Below, piece after piece: positions 27,707 through 44,113 of a stretch of 64,000 bases of DNA. A model generated the notes under the pieces. It was given only the letters and a program-made list of their open reading frames with translations, was not told where the DNA came from and did no database searches. Source of the stretch: a virus (Duplodnaviria; Caudoviricetes); IMG/VR virus record IMGVR_UViG_3300031992_000012, positions 1 through 64,000 of that record, one strand, 5' to 3'. The position numbers were made by a program, and so were the translations under genes. The stretch's first letter is position 1; each line of letters starts with the position of its first letter.

Positions 27707-30700
27707 ATGCCTATAGATCCAACCCAGCTTTACTCCCCAGGCGATTTCACGGCTGTCAGGAACAGGATATTCCAGGATTCCCTGGACGCTGTCCGCAACC
27801 GTTTCCCGATTGAGAACGACAGATACATCCTGTCGCTCGAGAACGCCGACTACGAGAACCCGAAGGAGTACACCCTCCGAGACCAGAAGAAGGCCGTGCA
27901 GAACGACCAGACGCTTTCGTGGAGAATAAAGGGAAACTGGGTTCTTACCGACAAGGCTTCCGGAAAAGTTATTTCACGCTCCTCCCGTCGGGCGATTATG
28001 GATGTTCCGTACCTTACACAACGAGGCACGTTCATTCGCTCCGGCACGGAGACGACGCTTCCTACGCAGATGCGACTCGTTCCTGGCGTCTACTCCCGCA
28101 TGGGCGAGGATGGACTGGCTAAGGCGCACATAAACGCAAGGCCCGGCACAGGCAACACCGTCATGATGACGCTCAACCCGGCCAAGCCCGTGTTCAAGGT
28201 GTCGGTGGGAACAAGGAACTACGACCTGTTCCCGCTGCTGAAGCATCTTGGCGCTACCGACGAGGACATAAAGAACGCCTGGGGCAAGGAGCTGTTCAAG
28301 GTCAATGAGGACGCCTTTGTCAACGGCGGCGGGTGGTATCGCGCCAAGACGGCCGCCGAAGTGGACCCGAACGACCCGTGGGAGAAGGCCGCAAAGGACG
28401 TCCTCGGCGGTGAGTTGAACGAGGACAATACTACGGCCACGTTCGGTAAGCCCTACAAGAAAGTGGACAAGGATTTGCTTCTGGCCTCCTCGGCGCGTCT
28501 TATCGGACTGGCCAAGGGACAGCATACCGGCGACAACCGTGACTCCATGGAGAACCAGCGGTTCTTCGGCCCTGCTGATTTCATAAGCGAGCGAATCCGG
28601 CTTGACGCGGGTGGCCTTGCCAAGAATCTCCTGTGGCGTGTAAGCCGCTACGGAGACACCGAGAAGATTCCTTCGGCGCCGCTTAGCAAGTATGTGCACG
28701 GGCTGTTCACCGAATCCAATCTAGCGCAGGCCATCGAGGAGACCAACCTGCTGGACGCCTACAAGCGAGCCACAATGGTGACGCGCATGGGCGAAGGAGG
28801 AATCGGCTCACTTGAGTCCGCCCCAATGAGCGCGCGTCTGGTACACAATAGTTATAAGGGATTCATCGACCCAATAGCTGCTCCAGAATGCTGTCACCCT
28901 GACCATTTGGTTTTTACCAAGAGAGGGTGGAAAAAAATAGCTGAGGTGACAACGGATGACTTTGTCGCTTGTTTGCTTGACGGCAGGTTGGAGTATAGGA
29001 AGCCAGACAGGGTGGTGTCTTATGACTTTGATGGCCTGTTATATGGTTTTGAGAACAAAGCCATTAAATACATGGTTACCGGTAACCACAGAATGTGGTG
29101 TGCCAAGGCGCCCGATAGACGCAAAGACAGTAAAAGAAAGTCCAAGGAATACGAATACGCTTTTTCGTATGCCGAGGACGTTCATAATACTAACTGCGTT
29201 ATGTTGTCTGGTGGATATAAGCCACTAATACATGACACAGTAACAAGTAAGACAATTACGGGAGCTAAGGAGTCTTATGTTTTTGATATAAAGGACTGGT
29301 GTGAGTTCCTTGGCTGGTTTGTTTCTGAAGGGTGTGTTGCAAAAGCAGATAACTCAGGTTTAAGCATAGCGCAGGTCATAAAGGTCAATCCCGATAATTG
29401 TGCTCGTATAACGAAACTCCTTAATAGAATGGGACTCCGTTTCAAGTACACTTCCGGGAAAATGTTTAATATCAGGTCGAAGGCTCTTCACGACGAACTG
29501 CTTCCTTTGGGCTACTGCTACGAAAAGTATATCCCGGACGATGTTTTTTCGTCACCCGAGGACGCGCAGAAACTTTTTATAGAGGCGGCGCTTTTAGGGG
29601 ACGGAAGAAAAGAGAAAAACGGTATGGGTGGTTTATGCACAACTAGCCCGAGACTTGCTCATGACTTTGAACGACTGTTGTTTGAGAACGGTATTCCCTG
29701 CAGGGTTTCGTTTGAGCCGGATAACAGGGAAGAAAGGTATAGAGGAATCTTTGTAACTAGACCTATAGTAGGAAAAGAGTTATGGCTTATCCGCAACGGT
29801 AGACTACGCTCTCACAGTGATAAGAGGAGTACGAGTTTCACGACAATTCCGTATAGGGGAAAGGTCTACTGCCTTACTGTTCCTGGAGGATTGTTTTTTA
29901 CAAAGATTGACGGTTTTAGAGGTTTCTGGACGGGCAACTCCCTCCGGGTAGGTCTTGATACCCAGATAGCCCATTCCGCACGCCGTGGACCGGACGGGCT
30001 GGCTTACTCCCCCGTTATCGACGTGACCACTGGTCAGCGCGTATACCTGTCCACCCTTGAGTCCAGCAAGATTCCGATCTCGTTCCCCGAGTACCGCGAC
30101 TCAAAGGACAAGCTTATCCCTGCCATGATAGGCAACGACATCGAGTACCTGCCCAAGAACCAGGTCCGTTATTTCATACCCAACGGCGACACGCTGTTCT
30201 CCACCGCCGCCGACTTCGTCCCGATCAAGTCCGGTATCAAGGCAGGCCGTCTGCTGATGGCGCAGAAGCACCAGACGCAGGCCATGTCCATCAAGGACAG
30301 GATGGCCCCCTATGTCCAGTCGCTGGACCCTGAAGGCTCCGGTAAGTCGGTTGAGGAAGTCTACGCCAACATCCTCGGCGCAGTGCGCTCCGACGCGGAA
30401 GGCAAGGTCGTCAAGGTCACAAAGGACGAAATAGTAGTGGCCGGAACCGATGGAAAGAAGCACTCGTACTCCCTGTACGACAACTACCCGCTCAACAGGA
30501 AGTCGGTTGTCAACAACACCGCTGCGGTCAAGCCCGGCGACATTGTCCGGCCAGGGCAGTTGCTCGCCTCGTCCTCGTACACGGACAAGAACGGCGTGGC
30601 GGCCCTTGGAACACAGCTTCGTTCGGCGTGGCTGTCATACAAGGGCTGGAACTACCTCGACGCTATTGTCGTGTCGGAATCGGCGGCCAAGAAGCTTACC

Positions 30701-33334
30701 TCAGAGCACTTCTACCATGAGGGCATAGACAGGGACGACGGCGTCGACTTCGGGCGTGACCGTTACATAGCGGCATTCCCGTCGCGCTTCAACCGTGAGC
30801 AGCTCTCCACGATAGACGCGAACGGAGCTGTCAAGCCCGGTACGATAGTCCATCACGGCGACCCGCTTGTCCTGGCCATGTCGCTCCGCCCAGGCGGACC
30901 AGGAACAGGATACCGCGCCCTTCACAAGGACATATCCTCCACATGGGAGCACGAGTTCCCGGGCGAGGTAACGGATGTCGTCGAGGGAAAGGACGGCATG
31001 CGCGTCTACGTCAAGAGCTGGGTACCGCTTCAGGTCGGCGACAAGCTGGCGACTCGTTTCGCCAACAAGGGTACGTGCGCGGCCGTCATACCCGACGAGA
31101 AGATGCCGCGAGACGCCGAGGGGCGCCCGCTAGAAATCCTGTTCTCGCCGACCGGTATCGTCAGCCGCTGCTTCGACGAACAGCACCAGTTGCTGACCCG
31201 TCAGGGATGGACCCCCATAGCGATGGTCAAGGGCACCGACGAGATATTCGCATACAACCCGCGTACCGGCAAAGGGGAGTTCCAGCGCCAGATACAGCCA
31301 ATCCATTCTTCCCGCTACTCCGGCAAGATATACATGTGCTCCAACAAGGATGTCGACTTCGCGGTCACGGAGGGCCACCGCATGTGGGCGCTGACCGATT
31401 TGGCGGAGGGTTTCAGGGAGGTCGTCGTCGACGACATCGCCAACACCCATGTCATAATCCCGGCATCCGGCAATGATTTGAAGCCGCTGCCGGTCGCCAT
31501 CCAGCCAAACGACTGGCGCGTCCTGCAGGCCGAGAACGTAAGCGTGCACTGCCCGACCGTACCTAGCGGCTACGTCTTCACAAGGCGCAACGGCGTAATC
31601 ACCTGCCTCGGCAACACCAACAGCGCGGCCCTTATCGAAGCCGCCCTCGGGAAGGTCGCCGAGAAGACCGGCAAGCGGTATGTGATGCCCGGTTTCGGCA
31701 CCGACCTAACGGCGTTCGCCCACAAGGAGCTCGCCGACGCGGGACTAACCGACCGCGAGGACGTCACCGACCCCGACACCGGCAAGAAAATCAAGGGAAT
31801 CTTCACCGGCAACTCCTACGTCACAAAGTTCCACCACACCTCCGAATCCAAGGGCGGCGCGCGCGCCACCGGTTCGTACACCGTCGACGAGCAGCCCGCG
31901 TCCGGCGGACATGACGGCGCCAAGACGCTCGGCGGACTCGTCCTCGGCGCCTTCGCCGGCCATGGCGCCTCCGAGGTCCTCAAGGACATGAAGCTCATAA
32001 AAGGGCAGAAGAACACGGATTTCTGGCGCGACTTCAAGATGGGGAAGAACCCCGTCACGCCCGGCGTCCCGCTCATCTACGAGCGGTTCCTGGCCTCCCT
32101 TGAGGGCTCCGGCATCCACATAACGAAGGACGGCGACAAGACGAACGTCTTCGCCATGACGAACGGCGACGTCGACAAGATAGCCCGCGCCGAACTAAAC
32201 AGCGCGGCCACGTACGACGACAAGCGCTTCCTGCCAATCCGGGGCGGTCTGTTCGACCCCGCCATCTTCGGCCCCGAGGGCAACCAGTGGGCCAAGATCA
32301 AGCTCGACGAACCCGTCCTCAACCCCATAATGGACGATGTCGTCTGCAACTTCCTGAATCTCAAGAAGGCCGAGCTGGACGACGTCCTCGCCGGCAGCAG
32401 GAAGCTTCCCAACGGAATGACCGGCGGCGAAGGCCTACGCCAGCAGCTCGCCCATGTCAACCTCGACTCCCTTATCGAGAACGCCAAGAACACAATCCGC
32501 ACCGGCCCCCCTTCCAGACGCGACAAGGCTGTGAAAACCCTCCGCTGGGCGTCCGCCATGAAGAACCACGACGCCACGCCCGACATGTTCATGCTGGACG
32601 CCGTCCCCGTCCTCCCGCCGAAATACAGGCGCATAACTCGGTCGGGCGACCTCAACATGATTGCCGACGCAAACTACCTCTACAAGCAGCTACTTGACTC
32701 CAGGGACGACCTGAGGCAGGCGAAGAACGCCGGACTGCCGGACGAGCTGCTCGCATACGGACGCAAGCGGATAACGGACTCCTTCCGCGCCATAACCGGA
32801 CTGGCCGACCCGACCGACAGGAAGCTGGTGGACAGCGACGTCACCGGTCTGCTGAAATGGGTGTTCGGGAAAGGTTCGCCAAAAATGGGCGCGGCCCAGC
32901 GGCTGGTCATAGGCGGCAAGCTTGACGTGGCCGGCCGAAGCGTCATCAACATCGACCCCAGGCTCGACTTCGACGAGATAGGGATGCCCGAGAAGCAGGC
33001 GTGGCCGCTGTACAGGGACTTTGTCATACGGAAGCTGGTGCAGGCGGGGATGAACCCGCTGCAGGCGACAAGGGCGACAGTGGAGCACACGCCGTTGGCG
33101 AAACAGGCGTTGATAAAGGCCATGAGCGAACGGCCGGTCATAGCGACACGGGCGCCCGCGCTGCACAAGTTCAGCGTCCAGGCGTTCAAGCCGAAGCTGG
33201 TTAGCGGGGATACACTGAAGCTGAACAGTGTAGTGGAGCATGCGTTTAACGCAGACTTTGACGGGGACCTTCAAATAAACAGCGTATTTGTAAGGTTTTA
33301 TGATAAATCGTCTGAGGGTCAAAAAATAAAATAG
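27707..33334 (+). CDS. Phage RNA polymerase: beta fused to the N-terminal part of beta', ending just after NADFDGD; two cis inteins
   Basis: RpoB motifs VPYLTQRGTFI..PGVY, GWNYLDAIVVSE, GDKLATRFANKG and KFHH..ARATGSY, followed in frame by RpoC motifs GLFDPAIFGP, VPVLPPKYR, AGRSVI, RAPALH and NADFDGD. Confidence 0.95.
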   Translation: MPIDPTQLYSPGDFTAVRNRIFQDSLDAVRNRFPIENDRYILSLENADYENPKEYTLRDQKKAVQNDQTLSWRIKGNWVLTDKASGKVISRSSRRAIMDVPYLTQRGTFIRSGTETTLPTQMRLVPGVYSRMGEDGLAKAHINARPGTGNTVMMTLNPAKPVFKVSVGTRNYDLFPLLKHLGATDEDIKNAWGKELFKVNEDAFVNGGGWYRAKTAAEVDPNDPWEKAAKDVLGGELNEDNTTATFGKPYKKVDKDLLLASSARLIGLAKGQHTGDNRDSMENQRFFGPADFISERIRLDAGGLAKNLLWRVSRYGDTEKIPSAPLSKYVHGLFTESNLAQAIEETNLLDAYKRATMVTRMGEGGIGSLESAPMSARLVHNSYKGFIDPIAAPECCHPDHLVFTKRGWKKIAEVTTDDFVACLLDGRLEYRKPDRVVSYDFDGLLYGFENKAIKYMVTGNHRMWCAKAPDRRKDSKRKSKEYEYAFSYAEDVHNTNCVMLSGGYKPLIHDTVTSKTITGAKESYVFDIKDWCEFLGWFVSEGCVAKADNSGLSIAQVIKVNPDNCARITKLLNRMGLRFKYTSGKMFNIRSKALHDELLPLGYCYEKYIPDDVFSSPEDAQKLFIEAALLGDGRKEKNGMGGLCTTSPRLAHDFERLLFENGIPCRVSFEPDNREERYRGIFVTRPIVGKELWLIRNGRLRSHSDKRSTSFTTIPYRGKVYCLTVPGGLFFTKIDGFRGFWTGNSLRVGLDTQIAHSARRGPDGLAYSPVIDVTTGQRVYLSTLESSKIPISFPEYRDSKDKLIPAMIGNDIEYLPKNQVRYFIPNGDTLFSTAADFVPIKSGIKAGRLLMAQKHQTQAMSIKDRMAPYVQSLDPEGSGKSVEEVYANILGAVRSDAEGKVVKVTKDEIVVAGTDGKKHSYSLYDNYPLNRKSVVNNTAAVKPGDIVRPGQLLASSSYTDKNGVAALGTQLRSAWLSYKGWNYLDAIVVSESAAKKLTSEHFYHEGIDRDDGVDFGRDRYIAAFPSRFNREQLSTIDANGAVKPGTIVHHGDPLVLAMSLRPGGPGTGYRALHKDISSTWEHEFPGEVTDVVEGKDGMRVYVKSWVPLQVGDKLATRFANKGTCAAVIPDEKMPRDAEGRPLEILFSPTGIVSRCFDEQHQLLTRQGWTPIAMVKGTDEIFAYNPRTGKGEFQRQIQPIHSSRYSGKIYMCSNKDVDFAVTEGHRMWALTDLAEGFREVVVDDIANTHVIIPASGNDLKPLPVAIQPNDWRVLQAENVSVHCPTVPSGYVFTRRNGVITCLGNTNSAALIEAALGKVAEKTGKRYVMPGFGTDLTAFAHKELADAGLTDREDVTDPDTGKKIKGIFTGNSYVTKFHHTSESKGGARATGSYTVDEQPASGGHDGAKTLGGLVLGAFAGHGASEVLKDMKLIKGQKNTDFWRDFKMGKNPVTPGVPLIYERFLASLEGSGIHITKDGDKTNVFAMTNGDVDKIARAELNSAATYDDKRFLPIRGGLFDPAIFGPEGNQWAKIKLDEPVLNPIMDDVVCNFLNLKKAELDDVLAGSRKLPNGMTGGEGLRQQLAHVNLDSLIENAKNTIRTGPPSRRDKAVKTLRWASAMKNHDATPDMFMLDAVPVLPPKYRRITRSGDLNMIADANYLYKQLLDSRDDLRQAKNAGLPDELLAYGRKRITDSFRAITGLADPTDRKLVDSDVTGLLKWVFGKGSPKMGAAQRLVIGGKLDVAGRSVINIDPRLDFDEIGMPEKQAWPLYRDFVIRKLVQAGMNPLQATRATVEHTPLAKQALIKAMSERPVIATRAPALHKFSVQAFKPKLVSGDTLKLNSVVEHAFNADFDGDLQINSVFVRFYDKSSEGQKIK
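28889..29938 (+). mobile_element. Intein 1 in RNAP beta (350 aa, LAGLIDADG homing endonuclease)
   Basis: PIAAPE|CCHPDHLV...VTGNH...FLGWFVSEG...VYCLTVP...WTGN|SLRVGL; exteins rejoin as the RpoB PIETPEGPNIGL equivalent. AT-rich. Confidence 0.9.
31169..31615 (+). mobile_element. Mini-intein 2 in RNAP beta (149 aa)
   Basis: PTGIVSR|CFDEQH...VTEGH...VHCPTVP...CLGN|TNSAALIE; exteins match RpoB PLGVPSRMNIGQILE. Confidence 0.9.
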
Positions 33335-33354
33335 GAAAAATATCAAACTCTGCC

Positions 33355-33382
33355 TTGACATTGTTCTTTTCCGCATTATAGT
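33355..33382 (+). promoter_or_regulatory. sigma70-like promoter in the gap of the split RNAP gene
   Basis: TTGACA-16 nt-TATAGT upstream of RBS AAAAGGAAAAG and ATG33439. Confidence 0.65.
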
Positions 33383-33438
33383 AATAGCATGTTCAATCGA
33401 GGAACGTGCTATTAACCCTAATGAAAAGGAAAAGAACA

Positions 33439-35526
33439 ATGAACAGAGTAAAGTTTTTCTCTAACGGCCAGACTTTGATTATGAACCTTGCGGATATTCC
33501 GCATGGTGCCCTTATCGGCTCCAAGGACTTTGACGATGGAAGGCACATTGACTTTTATGAGGCCCTTCCAGGAACACAGGTCATTGCATACGACGAAGCG
33601 ACGGGTAAGCCAAAGTGGGTTGATATCTCCGGTTGGTCGAGGCACACCGGTTCAAAATTGGAGCTGGTGCAGTTGTCCAACGGCGACACGATAACGACGG
33701 ACGACGACCCCCGCGCCGTTTATGGGATGCCTATTGACGCGGTTGGTTTGCAGATGGACAGGGACACGCCCGCTAACGCCAAAAAACGTGCGTTTATAGT
33801 CCCGCTGGTAGGGCAGCTTCCTGAGACTACTCCGGTGTTTTCTTCCGTTGACCTTTTGAACGGCGGTGTTCCTTCAAACGACACGCCAATCCCAAGCAAG
33901 GGAATAATAGCCGCCGACTACAATTTCGGACAGTTCCTTGGTCTTATCGCCGGAGACGGGTGGTGGCATAAGAGTATATACAGTTCTGGTTATAAAAACG
34001 CTGTTCTTTTAGCAGACCTTTACGGCTCAAATGCCGGCTTTATTATAAATTGGGCTAAGGAACTATTCCCTAGTTTTAAATACTACAAGAGCGAGCAGAG
34101 AAAGGAATTATACTCTGATCGGTTTGGTGACTGTATTTCGTGGTCCTTCTACTTCTACGATTCCATGATAATGTGCGACGCCCTGTCCAACATGCTTGAC
34201 GGGCATAGTGACAACAAAACGGCAGGAGCAGGGAACAAGCGTCTTCCTTACTGGTTCCTGTCCATGCCGAAGGAGTTCCGTCTAGGTCTTCTTAATGGTC
34301 TAATGGCTTCCGATGGAACAATAAATTTCAATTCCTCCGGCGACAGAAGCCACCCAGAACTGCAGCTTCAGTTCACATCGACATCCCGGGCGCTTATTGA
34401 CGACGTAAAGGCTTTGTGCACTTCCCTGGACATACGCGCCACAATATTATTCTCGAGGAAAACAGTCCGCGACAATACATCCTGGGTGGTTGTTCTGAGC
34501 TCCCAGGACTGCAAACGAATGGACGTCTTTTCCCGTTGCTGCTGCGACTATAAGCGTGATACGTTCCTGAACGCGGATGTCTCGATGGACGCGCAGTACA
34601 ATCACGGTGACTTTCTGCCGCTTCCGAAGCAGGTGTCCGATACAATGTTCAAATACGTGAAGTGCCGGGCGAAGATTGCCAAGGCGGTTATCGAGGATTG
34701 CCCTCTTCCTGCCTACTGCAAGAGGGGGAACTCCGTCTATCAGTCGTTGTACCAGTATAGGTCCAAGGGGTACATAACGAGGGAATTCGCAGGCCGGCTA
34801 TGCGACTGGCTGGACGATACGACAAGGATGAACCTATGGTTCAATGACTATATCAAGGATTTTACAACGCGTTTGAAAAACGGTGAGCGTGTTTTCAAGG
34901 CGGAGGAGGGGAACACGCTGGTGGAAGCCATAGCCTTCAATGCGGGTTATTTTGACAAACCATCTGTTCTTGAGGCACGGGCCAAGTCAAGCATGCTTCG
35001 TCAGAAGACAAGCAGGTTTCCTGTAAACTTGCCTGAAGCTCTTGAGAAGGTGACGCTGTCTGATGATGCTATCCTGTTCAATCCTGTCGAGAAGGACCCA
35101 GTGCTAAGGGCCTGGTTGGAACTGTCGGCGTGTCCGATAAAATGGGCTTACATAGAGGATGTCCAGAAAACAGGGCAGGAGGAGGAAGGATATGACCTTA
35201 CTGTTCCCGGATATGAGACCTTTGCGTCCGCCAGCGGAATAATCCTTTCCAACACAATGACATACTACGTGCCTGTCTCCAAGAAGGCCGTGCAGGAGGC
35301 ATACGACCTCATGCTTCCTTCCAAGAACCAGTTGGCGGCCCGTGACTTCAAGGCCCTTCCCGAGCTTCAGGAGGAGCTGGTCTCCGGGGCGTGGCTGGCG
35401 TCTCATAAGAAGAACGCGCCTGTAAAGGCCGTGTTCAACACCCGCGCCGAAGCCATAGCGGCCTACCGCGCAGGAGAAATAGACATAGACGACAATGTGG
35501 TAATAAAGGAAGACCAGCACCGCTGA
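33439..35526 (+). CDS. Intein C-fragment (Hint + LAGLIDADG, ~605 aa) fused to a 90-aa beta' segment that continues from NADFDGD
   Basis: FLGLIAGDG, LLNGLMASDG, EGYDLTVPGYETF...ILSN|TMTYYVPVSKKAVQEAYDLMLPSKN; the part after the bar matches RpoC [25 protein letters not shown]. Confidence 0.9.
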   Translation: MNRVKFFSNGQTLIMNLADIPHGALIGSKDFDDGRHIDFYEALPGTQVIAYDEATGKPKWVDISGWSRHTGSKLELVQLSNGDTITTDDDPRAVYGMPIDAVGLQMDRDTPANAKKRAFIVPLVGQLPETTPVFSSVDLLNGGVPSNDTPIPSKGIIAADYNFGQFLGLIAGDGWWHKSIYSSGYKNAVLLADLYGSNAGFIINWAKELFPSFKYYKSEQRKELYSDRFGDCISWSFYFYDSMIMCDALSNMLDGHSDNKTAGAGNKRLPYWFLSMPKEFRLGLLNGLMASDGTINFNSSGDRSHPELQLQFTSTSRALIDDVKALCTSLDIRATILFSRKTVRDNTSWVVVLSSQDCKRMDVFSRCCCDYKRDTFLNADVSMDAQYNHGDFLPLPKQVSDTMFKYVKCRAKIAKAVIEDCPLPAYCKRGNSVYQSLYQYRSKGYITREFAGRLCDWLDDTTRMNLWFNDYIKDFTTRLKNGERVFKAEEGNTLVEAIAFNAGYFDKPSVLEARAKSSMLRQKTSRFPVNLPEALEKVTLSDDAILFNPVEKDPVLRAWLELSACPIKWAYIEDVQKTGQEEEGYDLTVPGYETFASASGIILSNTMTYYVPVSKKAVQEAYDLMLPSKNQLAARDFKALPELQEELVSGAWLASHKKNAPVKAVFNTRAEAIAAYRAGEIDIDDNVVIKEDQHR

Positions 35527-37876: not shown

Positions 37877-37949
37877 GTCCGGGTAGCATAATGGATAATG
37901 CATCTGATTTCTAATCAGACGATTGCGGGTTCGAGTCCCGCCCCGGACA
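37877..37949 (+). tRNA. tRNA-Arg(UCU); CCA not encoded
   Basis: Acceptor GTCCGGG/CCCGGAC, D-arm GCAT/ATGC, anticodon arm TCTGA-TTTCTAA-TCAGA, T-arm GCGGG-TTCGAGT-CCCGC. Confidence 0.95.
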
Positions 37950-39082: not shown

Positions 39083-42000
39083 ATGGAAGAAATCAGATTC
39101 TTTAGGAAGCGGTCCGGCCGTCTCGTGAACTTCAAACTGCAGAAGATTGCGGACGCGGTCGGGAAAGCCCTCGTCGAGGCGTGCGCAGCGTCGGGGAAGT
39201 CATTGGATGTCAAGGCCGTTTCCACGGCAATCGCCGAAAAGGTAAGGGCGTTGCTGGATGACAAGGACTCGCAGTTTTTCGTTCAGCCGGACAGGATGGG
39301 TTCGCGGGTCCCCCATCTGGAAGGCGTGCAGGACGCGGTTGTCAGCGTCCTCAAATCATCGCATGAAGATATAGAGGGGTATGACGCGAACATGGCCGAG
39401 CTCACGGGCCGTCTGTACGCCGACTACCGGAAGAAGAGGGACGAGGCCAGGAAGCAGCTCAAAGTCCGCAGCAGCAAGGACAACGCCGATGTGACTGACA
39501 AGGCCCTTCTCCTTGGGGACAGCAAGAACGTCCTCAACGGGTGGGACCGCGAGCGCATAGTCTCCGATCTCAAGGAGCACAACGTCGACGACGAAATAGC
39601 CGAGAAGGTCGCAAAGGAGACAGAAAGCGCTCTCCTGAAGACCGGCCTGTCTAGTGTGTCGTCCGACCTTGTCTCCGAATTGGTGAACAGTGTCATGGCC
39701 GACAACGGTCTTCCCATAAGACTCGCCGCCGGGAAGGGATACATAGTCGACAAGGATTTCGTCGAAGGGCTTATCAAGGAGAAGTCCGTAGAGAACAGCA
39801 ACATCGTCGGCAACAACCCTGAAGCGGTGGCCTTTGACATTGCCAGCAACGTTTTCAAGCAATACGCCCTTGACAACGTTTTCTCGAAGGACATCGGGGA
39901 AGCTCATATGAGGGGAGCAATACACCTTCATGATTTAAACTTTGTCATACGTGGCTACTGTGGTTCCCACAGCATCGAATACATCAAGAAGTGGGGGCTG
40001 AAGGGTCTGGTAAACCTGAACACGGAAAGCAAGCCTGCCAAGACCGCATCGGTCCTGACCGGCCATCTGAACACGTTCCTGGCTTCCATGCAGGCTTACT
40101 ACGCCGGAGCGCTGGGCCTGGGGTATCTTAACGTCCTCTATGCTCCGTTGATGACGGGAATGGACGACAAACAAATGCACCAGGTGGCTCAGGAACTTGT
40201 GTTCAACGGTTCTCAGAATGCGTTCAGCCGTGGTGGTCAATCACTGCATCCTTCCGAACCTATATGGATTAAAAAGGATGGTAGATATAAGAGTGTCCTT
40301 ATTGGTGAGTTTATCGACGAATATCTTGCCAGAAGGGCAGAGGCTGTTGAGAAGCGAGACGAATACGAGCTGCTCCAAACAGGAGACGAGGGTATCGAAA
40401 CAATAAGCTTCGACGGCCTAAGCGGAAAGGTACTGGACAAGACGGTTACTTTCCTTGCACGCATGCCTCATAAAGGCAAGATGTACCGTATTCACACGTC
40501 TAACGGAATTGTCAATGTTACAGGTGACCACTCGGTGTTCACTTTCCGGGGAAAGCAGGACATAGCTGATGTAAAAGCCAAGGACCTTAAGAGGGGCGAT
40601 TTTGTAGTCATACCCCACAGAGTTCCCCTCAAGGAGGAGAAGACAACAGTAAATGTTGTCGATTACGTTCCTGAGAAATGGCTATCGGTTAGTGGCTTTG
40701 AAAATTTCCTGTCCAAGGTGTCAGCTAAGGGCACCCCGGCAAAGGTCCTCGAGGAAGTCGGAGCTACCCGCTTTATCTTGAAAGATGGAAAGAAGACAAA
40801 CAAAGTAAGGATTTCCTTGGCTAAACATTTTGTTGATGTCAGGAATAGCGTTTTGTGTCTGAAGGGTGATAGCCAGTCGTTGTTGCCCGCAGAGATTCCT
40901 CTGACACGGGAGCTGGGCTATATAGCCGGTATGTTCTGCGCGGAGGGGTATAAAACTCTTAAGAAGGTTCTTATCAGCAATACTGATATAAAGCTTCTGG
41001 AGAAGGTACGGTCATGTCTGGATAAAATAGGGTACTCAGGATATTCCTATTACAACGGCATGATGCACGGAATGACGACGGACCATATAGAAATAGGCGG
41101 TGTTTTCGGGGCTTTCCTGCAATCTTCGTGTACATCCGGAAAGAAGACAAAAGTAGTTCCGGATTGGTTGTTCAACGCACCAATGGTTTGTCGTGAGGGG
41201 TTCCTTGATGGTTTCTTCGACGGTGAAGGCTCCAATAGGAAAGACTGCCCGGACGAATGGAGCGTCTCCAACACAAGCACACGGGTAGTGGCCGGTATAA
41301 GCTTGCTTTTACTGAACTACGGTAGAGAAACATATGTTTACGAAACCAAGCATGACAATGGCTGGTCTGACGTATATGAAGTCCGGGAAGCGCAGCGCAG
41401 AAAGGTCAATCCGTTTGACGAGTACACAACGGAAGAAGGGTTCCGCACATACAGCAAGCATCTGTCAAAGGATGTCAGGGATGCCGTGGAATGGCTCATA
41501 GAGTCAGACTTGTCGGTGTCTATCATCAAACGCATTGAGGAATACGATTATGATGGTCCTGTCTATGACATAAGCGTCCCAGGCACAGAGGCTTTCCTTG
41601 GTGGAACAGGGAATGTGTTTTTGCACAATACGCTTTTCATTGACTTCAATGTCCACAGCGGCGTCCCGTCGTATCTGAAGGATGTCCCCGCTATTGGACC
41701 TGGCGGAAAGTACATGGTTCAGGTCTTCCACTGCGGCGAACCCTTCATCAAGGAGCTCACCGAAGTCAAGGACGAGAAGACAGGCGACTGGGACCTCTAC
41801 CTTGACTGGGGCAACGAACATCCTGTCCGCATGCTTCATGAACACGACGGAAAGCAGGTGTTCGAGAACGAAAACACCGAGCGCCATGTCATGCGCTACG
41901 GCGACTACGCCGAGGATACCGCCCGTTTCGCCGAGGCGTTGCTCGACGTCTGGAAGGAAGGCGACGCCAATGGCCATGTTTTCGAGTTCCCCAAGTGCGA

Positions 42001-44113
42001 CTTCCATGTCTCCTCCGAGACATTCACGGACGCCCGCCAGTACCAGGTGTTCAGGAAGGCCTGCGAAGTGGCGAGTCACAATGGTTCGACCTACTTCGTG
42101 TTCGACCGCGATTCCGTGTCTTTGGCGAGTTGCTGCTTCACAGGAGACACCAGGATTCTTATTGGCGAGGACCGCGACCCGTCGCTTACATGTTTCCGCG
42201 ACGCCTATGACAAGTACGGAATCCACAACAGGACAATCCGTGTATACGACAGGGGCTCGTGGAGGAAGGCGAAGGTAATCCGCCTTTCCGGCAAGAACCG
42301 CCGAATGCTGTCGGTGAATCTGGCCTGCGGTAAGCACGTCTGCGTCACCGCCGACCATGAGTTCCCGACAACGCGCGGAGTGCTCAAGGCCTACGAGCTT
42401 ACCCCCGACGACGCAGTCCTGCTGTCCAGCAGCATGGCCGAAGGGCATCGCCGGTGCGAGGGAAAGGACAAGGCGCAGGTCTACGGAATCATAGCAGGCG
42501 CCTACCTGCTGTCCGGGCATTGCACCTCCACAGGCAAGACGATAGTCGTTGGAAACAGCCTTCCCGGCCTTGAAAACACGTTCTCGGAGACAATGAACAG
42601 CGCGCTTGAATCGGCAGGTTTCGACAAAGGCGTGTGCATGGTCGAGGAGGACGGCAACCGTCAAATGTGGGTCGTCACTAATCCTGAAATCCTCAACGGC
42701 GTTGAAAAATTGCTCAAGCGGACGGAGAACGGCGTATTCCTGTCCGATGCCATATATCGTGAGAGCCCGGCTGCCAGGGCCGCTGTCCTTATAGGACTCC
42801 TCGCGGCCTCCGCCGTCGAGTGCGAAGTGACTCCCGGCAGGATGGAGCTTCTTCTGGAGCAGATTGAGGCTATGGCCACGACCATCGGCGTAATCTGCAA
42901 AAAGCGAGTCGACGGGGATGACGTGTGCTTCTCCTTCGCCCCCGCAAGCATTGGGATGGAGGGCGAGACCATCGTCAAGGACGGTGAGAGCTATCTCAAG
43001 GTCCTGTCGGTAAAGGAAGTGCTGGAGCCCGAATGGGTCTACTGCTTCACTATGCTCGACACCAAGGACCCGTTCTTCACGCTGCCAAACGGTATCGTCA
43101 CGCACAACTGTCGATTGAAAGTGCAGATAACTGATATGTCGCTGTTGCAACATCCTGAAAGACTGAGAACACTAGGCTTTCAGAATGTCACAATAAACAT
43201 CCCTCAGTGCGCATACCGCGCCAAGCACAGGTACGACAGGGAAGGGGAAGGAAACATTGACAAGCTCAATGAATTCTTCCTTGCCGAAATCGACAGTATG
43301 ATGGACATATGCAAGGCCGCCCATCTCCAGAAGAAGGCGTTCGTCGAGACGCTGATGCGTCCCGGAGCGCCCATGTGGCAGATGGCCAAACCGTCCAACG
43401 ACGGCAATCCGTATCTCGACCTGAACACGGCCGTGTACATAATCGGCATGATTGGCCTCAACGACGCCGTCCACTATCTGACCGGAGAGGAGATGCACGA
43501 GTCCGACGCCGCCATGGACTACGCCCTCAACGTGATGACTCACATGTACCTGCGCTCCAAGGAATACACCAAGGAGACAGGCCTGACGTTCAAGCTCGAG
43601 GAAAGCCCGGCTGAATCGGCGGCTCGCCGTCTGGCGAAGGCCGACCTCGCCCTTTACAGGGAGGACGCGCTCAAGGTGTTCAAAGGCACCGAGGACGCCG
43701 CCTACTATACGAATTCCATACATCTGTCGGCCGACGCGCCGGTGGACATAGTGGAGCGTATCAGGAAGCAGTCGATGTTCCATAGCATCATCGAGAGCGG
43801 GGCGATTATTCATGTCTTCCTGGGCGAGTCCCGCCCCACGTCCGGAGCCATAGAGGAGCTTATACGCAATGTGTTCCTGCGTACCCAGTGCGCCCAGCTT
43901 GTCTTCAGCCCGGAGTTCACCTACTGCAACGAGTGCGGAAGGGAACAGGCCGGATTGAAGGACACATGCGATCAATGTGGTTCTTCTAACGTAATAGGTA
44001 TAACACGCGTTGTAGGTTACTACTCTGTCGTGCAGAATTGGAACAAGAGCAAGCGTTATGGCGAGCTCAAGGCACGCCAGCGCGGCAACTACAACGTGGA
44101 GGAGGCGAAATGA
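39083..44113 (+). CDS. nrdD: Anaerobic (class III) ribonucleotide reductase with N-terminal ATP-cone(s) and two inteins
   Basis: KRSGRLVNF..KIADAV (ATP cone), IHLHDL..YC, SRGGQ|T, SC|CRL, EESPAES, YYTNS, CNEC..CDQC and RVVGYY glycyl-radical motif. Confidence 0.95.
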   Translation: MEEIRFFRKRSGRLVNFKLQKIADAVGKALVEACAASGKSLDVKAVSTAIAEKVRALLDDKDSQFFVQPDRMGSRVPHLEGVQDAVVSVLKSSHEDIEGYDANMAELTGRLYADYRKKRDEARKQLKVRSSKDNADVTDKALLLGDSKNVLNGWDRERIVSDLKEHNVDDEIAEKVAKETESALLKTGLSSVSSDLVSELVNSVMADNGLPIRLAAGKGYIVDKDFVEGLIKEKSVENSNIVGNNPEAVAFDIASNVFKQYALDNVFSKDIGEAHMRGAIHLHDLNFVIRGYCGSHSIEYIKKWGLKGLVNLNTESKPAKTASVLTGHLNTFLASMQAYYAGALGLGYLNVLYAPLMTGMDDKQMHQVAQELVFNGSQNAFSRGGQSLHPSEPIWIKKDGRYKSVLIGEFIDEYLARRAEAVEKRDEYELLQTGDEGIETISFDGLSGKVLDKTVTFLARMPHKGKMYRIHTSNGIVNVTGDHSVFTFRGKQDIADVKAKDLKRGDFVVIPHRVPLKEEKTTVNVVDYVPEKWLSVSGFENFLSKVSAKGTPAKVLEEVGATRFILKDGKKTNKVRISLAKHFVDVRNSVLCLKGDSQSLLPAEIPLTRELGYIAGMFCAEGYKTLKKVLISNTDIKLLEKVRSCLDKIGYSGYSYYNGMMHGMTTDHIEIGGVFGAFLQSSCTSGKKTKVVPDWLFNAPMVCREGFLDGFFDGEGSNRKDCPDEWSVSNTSTRVVAGISLLLLNYGRETYVYETKHDNGWSDVYEVREAQRRKVNPFDEYTTEEGFRTYSKHLSKDVRDAVEWLIESDLSVSIIKRIEEYDYDGPVYDISVPGTEAFLGGTGNVFLHNTLFIDFNVHSGVPSYLKDVPAIGPGGKYMVQVFHCGEPFIKELTEVKDEKTGDWDLYLDWGNEHPVRMLHEHDGKQVFENENTERHVMRYGDYAEDTARFAEALLDVWKEGDANGHVFEFPKCDFHVSSETFTDARQYQVFRKACEVASHNGSTYFVFDRDSVSLASCCFTGDTRILIGEDRDPSLTCFRDAYDKYGIHNRTIRVYDRGSWRKAKVIRLSGKNRRMLSVNLACGKHVCVTADHEFPTTRGVLKAYELTPDDAVLLSSSMAEGHRRCEGKDKAQVYGIIAGAYLLSGHCTSTGKTIVVGNSLPGLENTFSETMNSALESAGFDKGVCMVEEDGNRQMWVVTNPEILNGVEKLLKRTENGVFLSDAIYRESPAARAAVLIGLLAASAVECEVTPGRMELLLEQIEAMATTIGVICKKRVDGDDVCFSFAPASIGMEGETIVKDGESYLKVLSVKEVLEPEWVYCFTMLDTKDPFFTLPNGIVTHNCRLKVQITDMSLLQHPERLRTLGFQNVTINIPQCAYRAKHRYDREGEGNIDKLNEFFLAEIDSMMDICKAAHLQKKAFVETLMRPGAPMWQMAKPSNDGNPYLDLNTAVYIIGMIGLNDAVHYLTGEEMHESDAAMDYALNVMTHMYLRSKEYTKETGLTFKLEESPAESAARRLAKADLALYREDALKVFKGTEDAAYYTNSIHLSADAPVDIVERIRKQSMFHSIIESGAIIHVFLGESRPTSGAIEELIRNVFLRTQCAQLVFSPEFTYCNECGREQAGLKDTCDQCGSSNVIGITRVVGYYSVVQNWNKSKRYGELKARQRGNYNVEEAK
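40241..41629 (+). mobile_element. Intein in NrdD (463 aa, LAGLIDADG)
   Basis: RGGQ|SLHPSE...VTGDH...YIAGMFCAEG...FLDGFFDGEG...VYDISV...FLHN|TLF. Confidence 0.92.
42134..43108 (+). mobile_element. Intein in NrdD between the paired active-site cysteines (325 aa, degenerate endonuclease)
   Basis: ASC|CFTGDT...VTADH...VYCF...VTHN|CRL; the LAGLIDADG-like helices lack their acidic residues. Confidence 0.9.

Follow-up and report, generated by a model that had tools for sequence, protein, structure and literature searches.

The DNA analysed here, referred to below as the window, comprises the first 64,000 nucleotides (nt) of the IMG/VR virus record IMGVR_UViG_3300031992_000012, which is 205 kb long and 94% complete according to CheckV. 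The source is a jumbo phage whose sole RNA polymerase is interrupted at its Mg-binding catalytic loop. The interrupting element belongs, in naturally split form, to a large family of mobile inteins that occur only between the catalytic motif NADFDGD and the Thr following it. To function, the enzyme probably requires a type of protein processing that is as yet unstudied. The reading that we favour, with a probability of roughly one half, is protein trans-splicing by a route that would need no nucleophile at intein residue 1, the chemistry being inferred.

Structure of the split locus

The polymerase gene begins with an open reading frame (ORF) of 1875 codons (27707-33334; + strand, as are all parts of the element described below) that fuses the beta subunit to the N-terminal part of beta'. 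Its N-extein portion (27707-33268), recognized by the Pfam models Rpb2_6, Rpb1_1 and Rpb1_2, ends in NADFDGD (33248-33268). In agreement with an initial annotation made from the sequence alone, the coordinates and translation place the end of this ORF 21 codons further on: a tail of 21 residues, LQINSVFVRFYDKSSEGQKIK (LQINSVFVRF..., 33269-33331), which corresponds to intein block A without its nucleophile, is closed by a stop codon at 33332-33334. An intergenic gap of 104 nt (33335-33438) follows. It holds a promoter-like site that matches the consensus at 11 of 12 positions (TTGACA at 33355-33360, a 16-nt spacer, TATAGT at 33377-33382) and, further downstream, the Shine-Dalgarno sequence AAGGA (33426-33430) within the ribosome-binding site AAAAGGAAAAGA.

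The second ORF (ORF2, 695 amino acids) starts in a different frame at ATG 33439 and has its stop codon at 35524-35526. The claim of the initial annotation that it encodes the remainder of a Hint domain, a LAGLIDADG endonuclease and the exact continuation of beta' is borne out both by Pfam, which detects LAGLIDADG_3 (PF14528, E 5.7e-7) along with a weak match to Intein_splicing, and by colinearity with an intein-less relative. The N-terminal Hint half (33439-33813), identified by motifs invariant in the family, starts with a residue that aligns with canonical intein residue 5. The homing endonuclease and a subsequent helical domain are nested behind it (33814-35139), followed by the C-terminal Hint half (35140-35253), delimited by alignment and carrying block F, GYDLTVPGYETF, and block G, which ends in ILSN. 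Its last residue, Asn605 (35251-35253), aligns with the terminal Asn of inteins, and the next codon (35254-35256) specifies Thr+1, the first residue of a 90-residue C-extein that reads TMTYYVPVSKK... (35254-35523, with the stop extending to 35526). Profiles match this C-extein weakly to residues about 466-496 of bacterial beta'. In the intein-less relative L002 the sequence runs unbroken through DFDGD|TVTYYVPVSK and reaches a stop about 90 residues on; the junctions of the element are therefore exact, and the 90-residue piece is a natural subunit end. With two separately translated fragments and a break shortly after block A, the locus has the layout of an atypically split intein.

Recurrence of the split layout and selection on its parts

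Two ORFs in different frames, lying just 104 nt apart in an AT-rich stretch, may simply reflect an assembly error, a dying intein, or a break mended at the nucleic-acid level by an intron, a frameshift or a ribosome hop. Such an explanation is largely refuted and we regard it as very improbable. The same two-ORF layout occurs in three further assemblies from other samples, namely in L003 (IMG/VR, 40% identity), in L053 (Logan run SRR23823294, ORF2 96% identical) and in L054 (SRR29277954, protein 57% identical), which speaks against an assembly error, one of the outcomes that the initial annotation had named as fatal to its proposal. Joining of the two ORFs by frameshifting or read-through was considered and is ruled out, as neither of the two reading frames is open between 33335 and 33387, and a search of the window with Rfam at gathering thresholds returned no group I or group II intron. 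Moreover, the -35 and -10 elements and the ribosome-binding site in the gap are conserved in L053 and L054, more so than the flanking codons of the tail.

Nor does the locus look like a decaying one with an intact polymerase elsewhere, the second outcome that the initial annotation had foreseen. All parts are under purifying selection, with a ratio of non-synonymous to synonymous substitution rates (dN/dS) of about 0.1: in the comparison with L053 it amounts to 0.11 for the N-terminal Hint half, 0.09 for the endonuclease with the linker, 0 for the C-terminal Hint half (nine synonymous and no non-synonymous changes), 0.088 for the C-extein and 0.04 for the N-extein. No second Rpb1_2 domain or NADFDGD motif is present elsewhere in the 205-kb genome (94% complete), so the interrupted loop is its sole polymerase catalytic centre. 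Finally, the nucleophilic Cys1 and the block-B His, whose loss could be taken for decay, are missing in contiguous members of the family as well.

A large family with an unusual set of conserved residues

Homologues of ORF2 number 39, at 28-96% identity; about 30 of them are split-form ORFs of ~690 amino acids, and in six the N-terminal part of beta' precedes without a break. IMG/VR contains 45 loci, which are mostly contiguous and include some mini forms of 300 amino acids devoid of the endonuclease, with a tail of 13 residues and another gene between the halves. One such mini form, L039 (1846-2533), has two small ORFs without assigned function, of 74 and 158 amino acids, between the N-terminal ORF, whose 13-residue tail reads CQWGHVFVCIRNS, and the Hint ORF, the two being about 1.26 kb apart. 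A profile search of 1.84 billion representatives yielded 652 proteins at E<=1e-30; the best 150 of these all score E<1e-145 over the full profile and mostly lie in polymerase ORFs of 1000-3700 amino acids. The family as a whole comprises more than 150 clusters at 50% identity, all from uncultured phages and all at the site NADFDGD|T, most of them contiguous and some split. A search of 50,697 GenBank phage records at the DNA and protein levels retrieved no member, only weak matches at the level of the endonuclease. We found no description in the literature of an intein at NADFDGD or with such a set of residues; papers on crAss-like phages, mReC and jumbo phages mention inteins or these polymerases, not an element at NADFDGD.

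The initial annotation described the peculiar residues for the split locus. The case is not an isolated one: most family members are contiguous, and the odd chemistry is therefore a trait of the family and not a consequence of the split. The individual residues, on the other hand, are just as the annotation had listed them, i.e. Leu at position 1, TTDDDP in place of TxxH, a Ser-Asn end and no block-F Cys. Instead of the Cys, Ser or Thr of class 1 inteins, residue 1 is Leu in the window, and it varies among homologues: over 112 members it is Q in 40%, D in 15%, A and E in 12% each, L in 5%, and C and S in 3% each. In the same 112 members the tail following it conforms to x-Q-I-[GN]-x-V-h-h-x-h (h, hydrophobic), that is, to block A without the nucleophile. 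The absence of the block-B His is conserved, and the split recurs. Block B, TDDDPR in the window (33697-33714), conforms to [TS]D[DN]D[PE]R in 148 of the 149 members scored, so that the Thr of the class 1 motif TxxH is kept in the window and the His is replaced by Asp. The lone exception, P0100, reads TDDH, with the His back at block-B position 10 and a further His at position 1, and represents a natural revertant. About 21 residues upstream of block B the family has an invariant [WYF]SxH motif, which in the window is WSRH (33634-33645) and carries His69.

At the C-terminal side, the class 1 residues that the initial annotation reported as retained, namely the block-F Asp (in YDLTV), the terminal Asn and Thr+1, are fixed throughout the family. 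The dipeptide Asn-Thr(+1) is present in 166 of 166 members, the penultimate residue is Ser in 164 of 166, and block F, with its invariant GYDLTVP, follows the pattern GYDLTVPxx[ED]TF, which aligns with FDLTVPGPHNF of the Ssp DnaB intein. The comparison of ETF or DTF with HNF shows the block-F His to be replaced by Glu or Asp in the family (Glu in the window), and neither this His nor the penultimate one, which normally assist Asn cyclization, is thus available. DnaE split inteins also have a penultimate Ser, and this residue alone is therefore not disqualifying. The position of the block-F Cys that defines class 3 is occupied by the Asp of the invariant YDLTV. With class 2 the family shares the lack of a residue-1 nucleophile, but it has Thr instead of Cys at +1 and no block-B His.

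The nested endonuclease has two LAGLIDADG motifs with acidic residues, Asp173 (33955-33957) and Asp292 (34312-34314), both nearly invariant, and an I-DmoI-like predicted fold, and is thus a predicted homing nuclease. All Hint motifs persist in contiguous, split and mini forms alike, even where the endonuclease is dead or missing, which is a classic indication that the host protein needs the Hint part. As a separate observation, about 12% of the intein-bearing members (11 of the 93 contiguous representatives; also P0035 and L012) have a deviating catalytic loop that reads DFNGD or DHNGD; the second 'universal' Mg-binding Asp is here encoded as Asn in a deamidation-prone Asn-Gly context. No loop of this type occurs in the 63 tabulated intein-less alleles.

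Predicted fold and a possible internal start

Two AlphaFold2 models, one of the contiguous member L033 (predicted local distance difference test score, pLDDT, 82.5) and the other of the window ORF2 alone (pLDDT 82.7), underlie the following comparisons. The L033 model matches the endonuclease-bearing inteins TliVMA, PI-PkoII and PI-PfuI at Z-scores (Z) of about 20 and mini-inteins at Z 15-18 with a root-mean-square deviation (rmsd) of about 2 A. In most of the mini-intein matches the first residue after DFDGD falls on intein residue 1, while a few start one residue earlier, and the last aligned residue belongs to the Ser-Asn end. The boundaries of the insertion in the conserved host site hence coincide with the ends of a Hint fold, as is the case for inteins. 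At either end the structural alignments leave an uncertainty of one residue; alternative junctions (an element running from Asp to Ser, with DFDGN as the product) are ruled out by intein-less alleles of the form DFDGD|[TAQI] and are also disfavoured by the fact that the parse Asp|...Asn|Thr recovers two canonical intein features at once.

The model of ORF2 matches the TliVMA intein at Z 29.9, with Asn605 placed on the terminal Asn and residue 1 on canonical residue 5, and its residues 157-379 match I-DmoI at Z about 15 and a modelled rmsd of about 3 A. By this prediction, ORF2 on its own lacks only the first four residues of a canonical intein. In the L033 model the tail behind DFDGD forms a beta strand, followed by about 25 disordered residues. 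When the two models are compared, a strand at ORF2 residues 3-8 (RVKFFS, 33445-33462) occupies the place of the strand formed by the tail (SVFVRF, 33281-33298), and the block-A strand thus seems to be present twice, once in each fragment. The second copy may act as a natural self-caging strand, or it may be what is left of a partial duplication; in L003 the two resemble each other (RVIVRFK and NVIMRDK).

The disordered linker of the contiguous members carries a further feature. In all 19 contiguous loci considered (L009-L050), an in-frame ATG, GTG or TTG is found in it (linker column 84), at the position where ORF2 of the window starts. A Shine-Dalgarno sequence of at least 4 nt precedes this codon in 15 of the 19 loci, against a background of 19% (p=3e-8), and one of at least 5 nt in 11 of the 19, against 4.4% (p=7e-11), although these values overstate independence as the loci are related. 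The conservation of the internal start suggests that the part comprising Hint, endonuclease and C-extein is apparently made separately family-wide. Judging from these sequences, the window lineage seems merely to have closed the upstream frame and gained a promoter.

Splicing, cleavage or permanent insertion

The initial annotation offered two possibilities, an unknown trans-splicing chemistry or a Hint domain capable of cleavage only. Both are still live, with the new evidence, namely the Thr+1 pattern and the block-A tail, leaning towards splicing. Among 65 distinct intein-less alleles the +1 residue is Thr in 43, Ala in 17, Gln in four and Ile in one, so that Thr is found in 66% of them compared with 166 of 166 sequences bearing the element (Fisher's exact test, p<1e-11). 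The pattern recurs in a subgroup with the loop NLDYDGD, where intein-less alleles have six Ala and three Thr and all seven identified intein-bearing members have Thr. C-terminal cleavage requires no +1 nucleophile, and the invariance of Thr+1 therefore points to a nucleophilic role for this residue. A further and close intein-less allele, P0185, which is 71% identical over the C-extein, reads NADSDGD|VMTYY; the Phe of the loop is replaced by Ser, and +1 is Val. The N-terminal side tells a similar story to Thr+1: few parts of the family are conserved as well as the block-A tail and block B, which is hard to explain unless some event takes place at the N-junction.

On these grounds we envisage the following course of trans-splicing in the window. 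ORF2 would be made from its own conserved promoter and ribosome-binding site, and the 21-residue tail of the upstream protein would dock into its Hint domain, probably displacing the look-alike strand of ORF2 and bringing the Asp(-1)-Leu1 bond into the active site. Since residue 1 is neither Cys nor Ser nor Thr, the usual acyl shift cannot serve as the first step. The N-extein would have to be transferred without a (thio)ester at residue 1, either through a direct attack of Thr+1 on the bond, as in class 2, or after activation of the carbonyl by neighbouring carboxylates, e.g. as a cyclic anhydride of Asp(-1), possibly with the aid of the carboxylate cluster of the intein and of the Mg-binding DFDGD loop itself. 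Asn605 would then cyclize, and the products would be a continuous DFDGD-TMTYY catalytic loop and a free Hint-endonuclease. RNA polymerase activity would thus be delayed until the two proteins, expressed separately, have come together and reacted. A more far-reaching proposal, which we put forward tentatively as somewhat less probable than trans-splicing as such, is that the family constitutes a further mechanistic class of splicing, without a nucleophile at residue 1 or in block F and without the block-B His; in the window it would occur in a naturally trans-acting form, whose N-fragment has 21 residues and whose C-fragment cages itself with the look-alike strand.

Several points weigh against trans-splicing. 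No obvious substitute for the nucleophile of the first step is seen, and only about 5% of members have Cys or Ser as residue 1. Class 2 inteins, the nearest analogue of a direct attack, reportedly use Cys+1 and keep the block-B His, and Thr is far less nucleophilic. Asn cyclization would likewise have to proceed without the His residues that usually aid it. Co-conversion and the target preference of the endonuclease could contribute to the invariance of Thr+1. Also, the near-complete Hint domain modelled for ORF2 might cleave its own C-terminus without any N-fragment. A prediction of the complex between the last 200 residues of the upstream protein and ORF2 gave a score of 0.13, which is below the mark and provides evidence neither way.

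The main rival explanation is cleavage only, which we consider possible but less likely than splicing. Cyclization of Asn605 would then free the 90-residue beta' piece, which would complete the double-psi barrel non-covalently; the tail, kept on the N-terminal piece or hydrolysed off it, would serve merely to recruit ORF2. Such a course would suit an element with neither a residue-1 nucleophile nor a block-B His and with an ORF2 that, by its model, is a near-complete Hint domain with an N-terminal strand of its own. The polymerase already exists in pieces, the remaining C-terminal half of beta' being encoded elsewhere in the genome, by a gene of its own at about 106 kb, and the conserved internal start would provide a separate C-terminal part even in contiguous members. 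However, the contiguous members would then keep a domain of 500-600 residues behind the third catalytic Asp unless the N-junction breaks, and its breakage again demands unexplained chemistry. The fixation of Thr+1 and the strong conservation of the N-side motifs would likewise be left without a reason. The mini forms show that loss of the endonuclease does occur, yet we found no polymerase split at the same site without a Hint domain, which is weak evidence as the search depends on shared 5-mers. Stand-alone C-extein matches of 87-92 amino acids did appear, but were rejected as cut gene calls, since their first residue is the internal Met of TMTYY or the Met of MSNT and they lie on short contigs of 0.6-1.4 kb.

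It is also conceivable, if distinctly improbable, that no chemistry takes place at all and the split Hint domain acts as a non-covalent clamp or a permanent insertion, with the endonuclease remaining part of the polymerase, where it might bind DNA. In favour of this, none of the three canonical catalytic His residues is left, the termini of a Hint fold lie side by side and would juxtapose the exteins, and WhiA, a LAGLIDADG-derived protein, binds complexes of RNA polymerase and promoter (8dy7 and 8dy9 are among the fold matches). But a clamp would need neither Asn605 nor Thr+1, both of them invariant, and a bulky domain at the third catalytic Asp would, to judge from bacterial RNA polymerase structures, occupy the active centre. 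The mini forms, furthermore, lose the endonuclease yet keep every Hint motif.

Whichever of these reactions operates, the case concerns hundreds of sequence clusters at the most constrained spot of an essential enzyme, in which the terminal Asn and Thr+1 are kept and the remainder of the catalytic set has given way to fixed carboxylates. Splicing, if true, would mean a new protein-ligation chemistry, free of cysteine and independent of residue 1, and the natural N-fragment of 21 residues (13 in relatives) would be attractive for protein semi-synthesis. Cleavage only would mean that a catalytic double-psi barrel can assemble non-covalently at its Asp triad. Either way, transcription of the phage would be controlled by an encounter between two proteins that are expressed separately.

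Other inteins and features of the window

The beta part of the same polymerase ORF contains two canonical class 1 inteins with Cys1 and TxxH, both on the + strand. The first spans residues 395-744 (28889-29938) and has Cys1, TGNH and the end N|S; the second begins with the Cys at residue 1155 (from about 31169) and has TEGH and, as read from the translation, the end GN|T. As both of these are ordinary, the odd residues are specific to the NADFDGD element. Other nearby sites of the polymerase hold inteins in relatives. Farther downstream (39083-44113), an ORF of 1676 amino acids resembling anaerobic ribonucleotide reductase apparently has, judging from its translation, two large intein-like insertions, one of which starts with CFTGDTRILIG and ends in THN|C. 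The sole Rfam match in the window at gathering thresholds is a tRNA gene (37877-37949).

Comparison with known inteins

To our knowledge, all inteins studied so far initiate the reaction via Cys, Ser or Thr at position 1, via the block-F Cys, or via a +1 Cys helped by the block-B His. The closest counterparts in layout are the atypically split inteins, with which the window element shares the split near the N-terminus (here a 21-residue N-fragment and a long C-fragment), an origin from phages or metagenomes, and the lack of cysteine. They start with Ser or Cys and follow the class 1 route, whereas the element has Leu1, a residue that varies across its family. It further differs in the fixed Asp at block-B position 10, the Glu or Asp in place of the block-F His, and the LAGLIDADG endonuclease nested in the C-fragment. 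In one of the atypically split inteins, the cysteine-less PolB16 OarG, the block-B His is dispensable and a His upstream of it (motif NX) is critical (PMC10189870). PolB16 OarG is thus a precedent for a relocated catalytic His, and by analogy the invariant His69 of the window element may play the part of the NX His.

From the viewpoint of mechanism, the element resembles class 2 (Mja KlbA) and class 3 (MP-Be DnaB; PMC2807308) inteins in lacking an N-terminal nucleophile and keeping a +1 nucleophile as well as the terminal Asn. The fold matches of ORF2 include the KlbA precursor (2jmz) and the class 3 intein AceL NrdHF (6zgq), at Z about 14. Class 2 inteins have Ala1, Cys+1 and the block-B His. 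Class 3 requires the block-F Cys of the WCT motif, whereas the element has Asp (YDLTV) in its place, Thr at +1, and Asp for the block-B His.

Over Hint and endonuclease together, class 1 inteins with LAGLIDADG endonucleases match best in structure (Z 20-30, rmsd 3-5 A over 340-400 residues). TliVMA (7qss and 7qsu), PI-PkoII (2cw7), PI-PfuI (1dq3) and PI-SceI have the same two-domain layout and likewise reside at conserved sites of essential enzymes, but they are contiguous, have Cys1, TxxH and His-Asn, and are only 14-21% identical to the window element. As concerns the break of the host gene into two ORFs, the parallel is with the fractured genes described from environmental phage-like DNA, which also combine a split intein with a homing endonuclease (Dassa et al. 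2009, PMC2677866). In those genes a free-standing endonuclease gene lies between canonical intein halves, whereas in the window the endonuclease is nested in frame in the C-fragment; in the mini form L039 a further gene likewise separates the halves.

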